From: TPA_inf: Saccharomyces
Taxonomy: Eukaryota
NCBI GenBank assembly: GCA_000146045.2
Contig: BK006938.2
Coordinates: 64,001-128,000 of the forward strand
Direction of reading: 5' to 3'
Length of the DNA: 64,000 nt
This document shows, in pieces, positions 19,548-64,000 of this stretch (the stretch's first letter is position 1; every line of letters starts with the position of its first letter). The notes beneath the pieces were generated by a model. That model saw only the letters and a program-made list of their open reading frames with translations, was not told the origin of the DNA and searched no databases. Made by a program: the position numbers and the translations under genes.

Positions 19548-19618
19548 GCGCAAGTGGTTTAGTGGTAAAATCCAACGTTGCCATCGTTGGGCCCCCGGTT
19601 CGATTCCGGGCTTGCGCA
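19548..19618 (+). tRNA. tG(GCC): tRNA-Gly (anticodon GCC), 71 nt, with no intron.
   Basis: The sequence is GCGCAAGTGGTTTAGTGGTAAAATCCAACGTTGCCATCGTTGGGCCCCCGGTTCGATTCCGGGCTTGCGCA. The A-box TGGTTTAGTGG and B-box GGTTCGATTCC are present. The acceptor stem GCGCAAG pairs with CTTGCGC. The anticodon loop is TTGCCAT. Confidence 0.95.
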
Positions 19619-61508: not shown

Positions 61509-61856
61509 CTAATTTGCGACACTTCGTAGTTCTGTGCTTTTATATGGAATATACTTGTGGACTCTATTCCTGGATGTAGATTTGCTTACAGATAGCCAAG
61601 AAATATTAGAAAAATATGCAGTGTAACACAAGTATAGAAGATGGTTTAGATGGGGGCGACATAACTTTCCCATCCTACAGCCCTGAAGCGGAGGCTCAAA
61701 ACAGATTCTTACCAAGAAGTGAGTTCCCCTCTGTGAGGCAACTCGTGATTTCGAAACAAAAAAGCAGAAGAAGAAGAGAAGAAAATGTATTTGTGGGAAA
61801 AATGGAGGACGTACTTGTAAAATGGAGGCCACCTGCATCTTCACATCGTGGCGCAA
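61509..61856 (-). CDS. Small antisense ORF overlapping the 5' end of YDL186W. It corresponds to the dubious ORF YDL187C and is probably not coding.
   Basis: It overlaps a longer ORF on the opposite strand and has no recognisable domain. Confidence 0.2.
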
Positions 61857-62449
61857 TTGAAGCTATTAATGGCACGCATCCATATCAGCTTAGCACAGCA
61901 CAATTCAACTCGAGAAGATCGGATCCATTTGGTTCAACAAAGAGAGATGAATCCGTGCGTTCCATTGTAGAATCGTTTACCGATTGGTGGAAACGCAATT
62001 CCAAAATGTTTTTTCGTGACGAGGAAGAAGGTGTACGAACCGAACACAGTGCGAGTCAAGATGACCAAGAGTTGCAGCTTTTCGAAGAAGATCTCTTCTC
62101 ATTTCACCTAAGCCCAAATGATATGTCAACCAGGAACAGCGAACATCAAGTGCAAACACCGGTGCTTTTCCCGTACGAAGCTCCTACTCGAACAAAACAA
62201 AACCCAGCAGAAAGAAAAGTCATTGAAATTGGGGACGGCGAAGAACTCTCTATCTATCGAGATGTTTATTCCAATCCTATTCCTGTCAGCTACCTAGATA
62301 CCTTAAACTTGAACCACTCCATGTCTGTACGGCAAACACAACAGCAACAACAACAGCGGCAACAGCAGCAGTATGTAGACTCTTCATCGGCATTTCAATG
62401 CTGTACAGACTCCAATTGGGCGAGAATATTTTTTTGCCACCACGATTAG
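61616..62449 (+). CDS. YDL186W, a protein of unknown function, 277 aa.
   Basis: The ORF is intact. It has a Gln-rich C-terminal stretch ([10 protein letters not shown]) and no recognisable catalytic motifs. Confidence 0.7.
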
Positions 62450-62537
62450 ACTCCACTTTGCTTCTATAGTCCTATCTATTGTTCTTTTTATTCCTAGCAT
62501 AACCTTATTGTATTGTTCTTTTTCTTTTTCCTTTTTC

Positions 62538-62565
62538 TTTTTTTTTTTTTTTTTTTTTTTTTTTT
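62538..62565 (+). repeat. Poly(dT) homopolymer tract of 28 T, ~220 bp upstream of the VMA1 ATG.
   Basis: Counted directly in the sequence. It also generates a spurious poly-Lys ORF on the minus strand. Confidence 0.95.
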
Positions 62566-62786
62566 CACATCTTTTTCCACGGCCGCTCAAAGGGGTCTCA
62601 CACTGGATTAAAAGCTGAAAACAAGAAATGGCTCTTTCGATAAGGTTGCAACATTTTGATTACTACGTTGATTAGAATAAAAAGTACCAAACACATTTCT
62701 CAAAGCATATAGATATCTAAGATTATAACGCAGGAGTCGTTCTTTCATTCTTAGAGTTAAAAAGCAAATAGAGAAGAAAAGAAACA

Positions 62787-64000
62787 ATGGCTGGTGCAAT
62801 TGAAAACGCTCGTAAGGAAATAAAAAGAATCTCATTAGAAGACCATGCTGAATCTGAATATGGTGCCATCTATTCTGTCTCTGGTCCGGTCGTCATTGCT
62901 GAAAATATGATTGGTTGTGCCATGTACGAATTGGTCAAGGTCGGTCACGATAACCTGGTGGGTGAAGTCATTAGAATTGACGGTGACAAGGCCACCATCC
63001 AAGTTTACGAAGAAACTGCAGGCCTTACGGTCGGTGACCCTGTTTTGAGAACAGGTAAGCCTCTGTCGGTAGAATTGGGTCCTGGTCTGATGGAAACCAT
63101 TTACGATGGTATTCAAAGACCTTTGAAAGCCATTAAGGAAGAATCGCAATCGATTTATATCCCAAGAGGTATTGACACTCCAGCTTTGGATAGGACTATC
63201 AAGTGGCAATTTACTCCGGGAAAGTTTCAAGTCGGCGATCATATTTCCGGTGGTGATATTTACGGTTCCGTTTTTGAGAATTCGCTAATTTCAAGCCATA
63301 AGATTCTTTTGCCACCAAGATCAAGAGGTACAATCACTTGGATTGCTCCAGCTGGTGAGTACACTTTGGATGAGAAGATTTTGGAAGTTGAATTTGATGG
63401 CAAGAAGTCTGATTTCACTCTTTACCATACTTGGCCTGTTCGTGTTCCAAGACCAGTTACTGAAAAGTTATCTGCTGACTATCCTTTGTTAACAGGTCAA
63501 AGAGTTTTGGATGCTTTGTTTCCTTGTGTTCAAGGTGGTACGACATGTATTCCAGGTGCTTTTGGTTGTGGTAAGACCGTTATCTCTCAATCTTTGTCCA
63601 AGTACTCCAATTCTGACGCCATTATCTATGTCGGGTGCTTTGCCAAGGGTACCAATGTTTTAATGGCGGATGGGTCTATTGAATGTATTGAAAACATTGA
63701 GGTTGGTAATAAGGTCATGGGTAAAGATGGCAGACCTCGTGAGGTAATTAAATTGCCCAGAGGAAGAGAAACTATGTACAGCGTCGTGCAGAAAAGTCAG
63801 CACAGAGCCCACAAAAGTGACTCAAGTCGTGAAGTGCCAGAATTACTCAAGTTTACGTGTAATGCGACCCATGAGTTGGTTGTTAGAACACCTCGTAGTG
63901 TCCGCCGTTTGTCTCGTACCATTAAGGGTGTCGAATATTTTGAAGTTATTACTTTTGAGATGGGCCAAAAGAAAGCCCCCGACGGTAGAATTGTTGAGCT
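62787..64000 (+). CDS. VMA1: VMA1/TFP1 (YDL185W), vacuolar H+-ATPase catalytic subunit A, 5' part. It continues past the window edge, and an intein begins at 63636.
   Basis: The protein begins [54 protein letters not shown] and includes the P-loop GAFGCGKTV. The sequence then switches to the intein ([14 protein letters not shown]...). Confidence 0.95.
63636..64000 (+). mobile_element. VDE: VMA1-derived endonuclease (VDE / PI-SceI) intein, N-terminal ~121 codons. It is an in-frame protein-splicing element with a homing endonuclease, and it continues beyond the window.
   Basis: The in-frame insertion begins at the Cys codon TGC at 63636, right after ...IIYVG. The sequence [60 protein letters not shown]... 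is recognised as PI-SceI. The host V-ATPase A-subunit sequence is interrupted just after its Walker A region. Confidence 0.92.

Follow-up and report, generated by a model that had tools for sequence, protein, structure and literature searches.

The VMA1 intein (VDE / PI-SceI) at the end of a 64,000-nucleotide stretch of Saccharomyces DNA

In the 64,000-nucleotide stretch of Saccharomyces DNA analyzed here (hereafter, the window), the last 365 nt (63636–64000) are almost certainly the first part of the 1362-nt S. cerevisiae VMA1 intein (VDE / PI-SceI), inserted in frame at the conserved VMA-a site between Gly283 and Cys(+1), with the splicing and homing mechanism of that element. The data presented below establish the identity and the exact boundaries of the element and show that its catalytic residues are intact, that the mature chain lacks it, and that it is present or absent at a precise site, the target being intact where it is absent. 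The VMA1 intein has been known since 1990. An earlier note, made from the window sequence, had named the element and called it already known and not novel; its identity to PI-SceI over the visible part agrees with this, and wherever it is visible the copy shows no departure from the known Sce VMA intein.

The VMA1 reading frame and the visible part of the intein

An ATG at position 62787 (+) opens a reading frame that continues to the window edge. Translation of 62787–63998 gave 404 stop-free codons, and the remaining five frames were shut by 4 to 31 stops each (63200–64000, both strands). The VMA1 ORF comprises 3216 nt overall, the first 1214 nt of which lie inside the window. In a PDB sequence search, all of the encoded residues (404/404) matched 9cop_A, a 1071-residue chain described as “V-type proton ATPase catalytic subunit A” (E=4e-274), and residues 1–283 were identical to the 617-residue yeast V-ATPase A chains 5bw9_A, 6o7v_A and 3j9t_A. 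After the sequence ...IIYVG, the 617-residue PDB chains read CGERGNEM, whereas the window reads CFAKGTNV. Pfam analysis of residues 28–291 detected ATP-synt_ab_N (PF02874), ATP-synt_ab_Xtn (PF16886) and the start of the ATP-synt_ab nucleotide-binding domain (PF00006). By the identity to 5bw9_A and 6o7v_A and by these three domains, codons 1–283 (62787–63635, +) represent the VMA1 N-extein. The Walker A motif GAFGCGKT (codons 257–264; 63555–63578, +) precedes the insertion point by 20 codons. The insertion point is the VMA-a site, which has been described previously (PMC8966425, PMC5784728). The earlier note had stated that the reading frame of the V-ATPase A subunit runs without a stop from the host sequence into the N-terminus of the intein, and both the identity of the host and the open frame, including the residues that were quoted, were confirmed by these results.

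The intein begins at position 63636, as originally placed, which is the first base of a TGC codon (63636–63638, +). Translation and the PDB match identified this codon (codon 284) as Cys284, corresponding to Cys1 of the intein; this block A residue acts as the nucleophile when splicing begins. Window residues 284–404 were identical to PI-SceI residues 1–121 in chains 1dfa, 1vde, 1lws and 1lwt (121/121, E=2e-74; PDB sequence search), thereby supporting the identification as VDE / PI-SceI. When these 121 residues alone were submitted to Pfam, the homing-endonuclease-associated domain Hom_end_hint (PF05203) was found on 284–404 with an E-value of 2e-45 and a score of 156 bits, compared to a curated cutoff of 32.1. 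The match spans profile positions 1–115 of 228 and its first residue is residue 284, so that the N-terminus of a Hint domain, which had been proposed for this point, does start at Cys284. The block B histidine (His362, intein His79) is encoded by a CAT codon at 63870–63872 (+); this position was computed, and the numbering was checked against complete inteins. A catalytic role of the block B histidine is established for class 1 inteins.

The difference in length between the two kinds of PDB chain (1071 − 617 = 454) equals the length of the PI-SceI chain. The window thus holds intein residues 1–121 plus 2 nt (63636–64000, +), or 365/1362 nt (27%) of the element, and position 64000 is merely the edge of the window and not a boundary of the element. 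PI-SceI is a 454-residue protein with an accessory DNA-recognition region inserted in its Hint domain (PMC8966425). The 121 intein residues in the window cover the N-terminal Hint/splicing lobe and, judging from the structural literature, probably include the beginning of the DNA-recognition region.

The region between VMA1 and its upstream neighbor (62450–62786, +) is intergenic and contains the 5′ leader and, as suggested by its position, a putative promoter. It includes a pyrimidine tract (about 62517–62566) with a run of 28 T (62538–62565), the length of which ranged from 14 to 35 T across six conspecific loci. A 277-residue ORF (61616–62449, +; coding part, 61616–62446) is located between a PP2A-type phosphatase gene and VMA1. 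Its product has the same sequence in all six conspecific loci and is without a Pfam domain on record. A 115-residue ORF on the opposite strand (61509–61856, −) overlaps the 277-residue ORF and is probably spurious. The identity to PI-SceI and to the yeast V-ATPase chains assigns the window to S. cerevisiae, and we take the gene order PPH22 / YDL186W / VMA1 to be that of chromosome IV. Elsewhere in the window, a tRNA-Gly gene (anticodon GCC; 19548–19618, +) was the sole RNA gene found window-wide by ARAGORN and by Rfam at the gathering threshold, and a search for the end motifs of Ty delta LTRs across the window found none.

The complete element and the empty site in conspecific chromosomes

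Six conspecific loci (L001 to L006) were found by means of the exact product of the neighboring 277-residue ORF (61616–62446). An identical 1071-residue protein was not among the best 120 matches of a large protein search, which were mostly 617-residue intein-less orthologues. The six loci share a common gene order (an Arf-family GTPase, an L29-family ribosomal protein, a U-box Ufd2, an R3H protein, a metallophosphatase, the 277-residue ORF and the ATPase gene) and showed 99.3–99.6% identity to the window over 12.4 kb. In L001, L002, L003, L005 and L006, the ATPase gene was called as a single 1071-residue product, in which Hom_end_hint and two Hom_end matches are located between two ATP-synt_ab matches. 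The expectation that an automated annotation would report one long CDS was therefore correct. The product of the L004 ATPase gene, in contrast, has 617 residues and is free of intein domains.

In 5/5 occupied loci, the insert was 1362 nt (454 codons) long and stop-free, starting with CFAKGTNV and ending with ...LLANQVVVHN, followed by CGERGNEMAEV. The C-terminal His-Asn and the subsequent Cys+1 (VVHN/CGERGNEM) are thus present in all five of these loci and lie beyond the window. The in-frame insert of ~454 codons, ending in HN before CGERGN, that had been predicted for the downstream sequence was found in these five conspecific loci and not in the window's genome itself; in these near-identical chromosomes, the frame returns to the V-ATPase sequence and contains no stop. 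When the insert was removed in silico, the resulting 617-residue protein was identical to the L004 product in 4/5 loci, and the protein from L003 carried one extein substitution.

The closest counterparts of the window were L001 and L005, which differed from it at 1/849 nt of the N-extein and 0/365 nt of the intein. The insert of L001 (L001:12020–13381) encodes an intein identical to PI-SceI at 454/454 residues. In this complete intein, the splicing residues Cys1, His79, His453, Asn454 and Cys+1 are all intact, and the LAGLIDADG motifs LLGLWIGDGLS (from residue 211) and FLAGLIDSDGY (from residue 318) are present together with D218, K301 and D326. Considering that 0/365 nt differ from L001 and L005, the C-terminal junction and the endonuclease domain of the window's genome are likely to be as they were read in these conspecific genomes. 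On the window's own chromosome, the intein would then end at about 64997, with the sequence ...GTCGTCCATAAT/TGCGGAGAAAGAGGT, and the 1071-codon ORF would terminate near 66002.

The DNA of the empty allele, L004, reads ...ATTATCTATGTCGGG/TGCGGAGAAAGAGGTAATGAAATGGCA (with a longer left flank, ...GCCATTATCTATGTCGGG/TGCGGAGAAAGAGGTAATGAAATGGCA), and that of the occupied alleles reads ...TATGTCGGG/TGCTTTGCCAAG...GTCGTCCATAAT/TGCGGAGAAAGAGG. The 1362-nt difference is exact, with TGC at either boundary. The alignment of the window to L004 ends exactly at 63638, because TGC is also the first codon of the C-extein. We take the PI-SceI recognition sequence to have the extent at which it is placed here. 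Its left half, ATCTATGTCGGGTGC, is located at 63624–63638 (+) in the window, where the intein parts it from the right half. The contiguous target, ATCTATGTCGGGTGCGGAGAAAGAGGTAATGAAATGGCA, is intact in L004, whereas the window has the left half only, and the full homing site was absent when searched for across the window with up to 3 mismatches. Since the two halves are separated by the intein, the window allele is uncleavable. The endonuclease is described as making a staggered cut with 4-nt 3′ overhangs at a long degenerate site (PMC7282813).

The presence of the insert in five loci and its absence from one (L004), at a precise site in chromosomes that are >99% identical, show that the VMA1 insert is polymorphic, as expected of a mobile element, and the precise empty site of L004 upholds its earlier description as a bona fide mobile element. 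[quoted passage not shown] Super-Mendelian inheritance was reported by Gimble & Thorner 1992, as cited in PMC7282813. The intein is absent from about 90% of wild strains and is carried by most domesticated lineages (PMC7925643).

Intein haplotypes and related elements

In comparison with the Sce VMA intein (VDE, PI-SceI; VMA1/TFP1; PDB 1VDE, 1DFA, 1LWS, 1LWT, 1JVA), the visible residues (121/121), the host gene and the Gly283/Cys site are the same, and the 454-codon length and the boundaries are the same in the conspecific loci. There is no detectable difference; the window merely stops after residue 121. Two haplotypes were distinguished among the five occupied loci, one in L001 and L005 (the window type, which is the PI-SceI type) and the other in L002, L003 and L006. 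They share the site, the 454-codon length, the catalytic residues and the species, but their inteins differ at 50–51/1362 nt (3.7%) and at 11 residues, with 10–11 of the differing positions falling in the 365 nt visible in the window. The exteins around them are near-identical, with 0–5 nt differences per segment among the occupied loci. By the Nei-Gojobori method, dS between the intein haplotypes was 0.14 and dN was 0.011 (dN/dS 0.08), compared to a dS of 0.017 in the exteins. The dN/dS value indicates purifying selection on the intein. The divergence of the inteins relative to the exteins fits separate histories of the intein and its host gene, and suggests that the two haplotypes were acquired separately. 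They match the “two subfamilies of VDE” that PMC7925643 cites from Okuda et al. 2003. A thorough intraspecific survey of VDE is still to come (PMC7925643).

Inteins at the VMA-a site of other fungi (Metschnikowia P0003, yeast P0001, and Coemansia P0024 and P0067) are inserted at the same point, ...Y[VI]G/CF[AE]KGT..., and have a Hom_end_hint N-terminal domain. With about 50–55% identity to the intein residues of the window, they are relatives at the orthologous site but different copies. The two Coemansia sequences (P0024, Coemansia furcata; P0067, Coemansia sp. S3946; NCBI names) are VMA1 fragments with a Hom_end_hint intein at ...YVG/CFAKGT that is about 55% identical to the N-terminal part of the window's intein. 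Coemansia is, as we understand it, a non-Dikarya fungal genus. A 2018 survey of eukaryotic inteins listed VMA1 inteins from four Dikarya subphyla only. The 668-aa VMA1 of Sungouiella intermedia (P0092) carries a 91-residue insert at VMA-a, CFAKGTEVYMADG...MLANTALVHN/CGERGN. At this length, the insert lacks the endonuclease domain and a large part of the Hint domain; P0092 represents a decayed remnant or, alternatively, a gene model in which the middle of the intein was spliced out as an “intron”.

The closest protein relatives of VDE are HO and WHO, which have intein-like Hint and LAGLIDADG domains and act through a double-strand break and gene conversion (PMC7282813). They differ from VDE in being free-standing genes without exteins, in having a C-terminal zinc-finger domain and in having no C-terminal intein motif. 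The element of the window, in contrast, is embedded in VMA1, in frame with both splice junctions. Membership in the HO / WHO group was rejected, since V-ATPase exteins flank the element in frame at either end and a zinc-finger domain was not reported for it.

Alternative explanations and mode of action

Since the window reaches no further than intein residue 121 and the endonuclease domain lies beyond it, we considered a decayed intein, which would still splice, as the essential function of the host gene demands, but would have lost its endonuclease activity through a lesion past the window end, as in a late stage of the homing cycle. Papers cited in PMC7925643 and PMC7282813 describe degenerate VDEs from other yeasts, and the insert of Sungouiella intermedia P0092 at the same site has only 91 residues. 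However, over the visible 365 nt the copy does not differ from L001 and L005, both of which have complete inteins, and the L001 intein is identical at 454/454 residues to PI-SceI, an active and crystallized protein. Moreover, 5/5 intein-bearing conspecific loci are intact, with a dN/dS of 0.08, and the 404 residues of the window are those of the 1071-residue PDB precursor, all of which makes decay of this copy extremely improbable. There is a negligible probability that the read-through is an artifact, in which the frame would be open by chance, or the insert would be an intron or another element lost from the RNA and not from the protein. The sequence by itself is silent on the level at which the insert is removed, and no tool lent support to such a reading. 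It is contradicted by the 404 open codons next to closed alternative frames, by the Hint domain with which the insert opens (E=2e-45), by the intein boundaries (Cys1, His-Asn and Cys+1), by an insert length divisible by three, and by the first report of the element, which found the “spacer” in the mRNA but not in the protein (PMC5784728).

It is also very unlikely that the element is a domesticated protein that serves the host, in the way that HO derives from VDE, and is retained for a cellular role such as the regulation of GSH11. Such a role would be compatible with the strong purifying selection on both haplotypes, with the near-fixation of the intein in domesticated lineages (PMC7925643) and with a VDE-dependent effect on GSH11 expression, as cited in PMC7925643. 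Purifying selection is, however, also expected for a homing endonuclease that is still spreading or moving between lineages, and a conspecific allele, L004, lacks the intein and has an intact target. The absence of the intein from about 90% of wild strains (PMC7925643) implies that it is dispensable, and the domesticated relatives of the HO type have no exteins (PMC7282813), whereas the window copy sits between exteins. Partial co-option of the excised VDE by its host, within domesticated S. cerevisiae, is improbable as well. If true, it would help to explain the strong purifying selection on both deeply diverged haplotypes and the near-fixation of the intein in domesticated lineages together with its rarity in wild ones. 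Continued homing together with repeated horizontal acquisition accounts for the haplotype and distribution data just as well.

As a whole, the element is best regarded as the VMA1 intein. The chemistry by which class 1 inteins splice in four steps, the cleavage of the target and meiotic homing are established in the literature (for homing, PMC7282813 and PMC2241902), and splicing and cleavage activity of the window's copy is expected from its identity to the characterized protein. VMA1 would be transcribed and translated as one 1071-residue precursor, from which the Hint domain, with its N-terminal half inside the window, would catalyze its own excision. An N-S acyl shift at Cys1, assisted by His79, would be followed by trans-thioesterification to the +1 Cys, by cyclization of Asn454 with the assistance of His453, and finally by an S-N shift that would yield the 617-residue Vma1 protein. 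The released 454-residue protein would be a LAGLIDADG endonuclease. During meiosis of heterozygous diploids, this endonuclease would cleave VMA1 alleles that lack the intein, at their uninterrupted target; with the intein-bearing homologue as the template for repair, the element would be copied into the cut site (homing).

No new biology is added by this copy, and its relevance is to annotation only. A gene caller reports a single 1071-residue product at this locus, where one ORF would give rise, by protein splicing, to the 617-residue V-ATPase A subunit and a 454-residue homing endonuclease.
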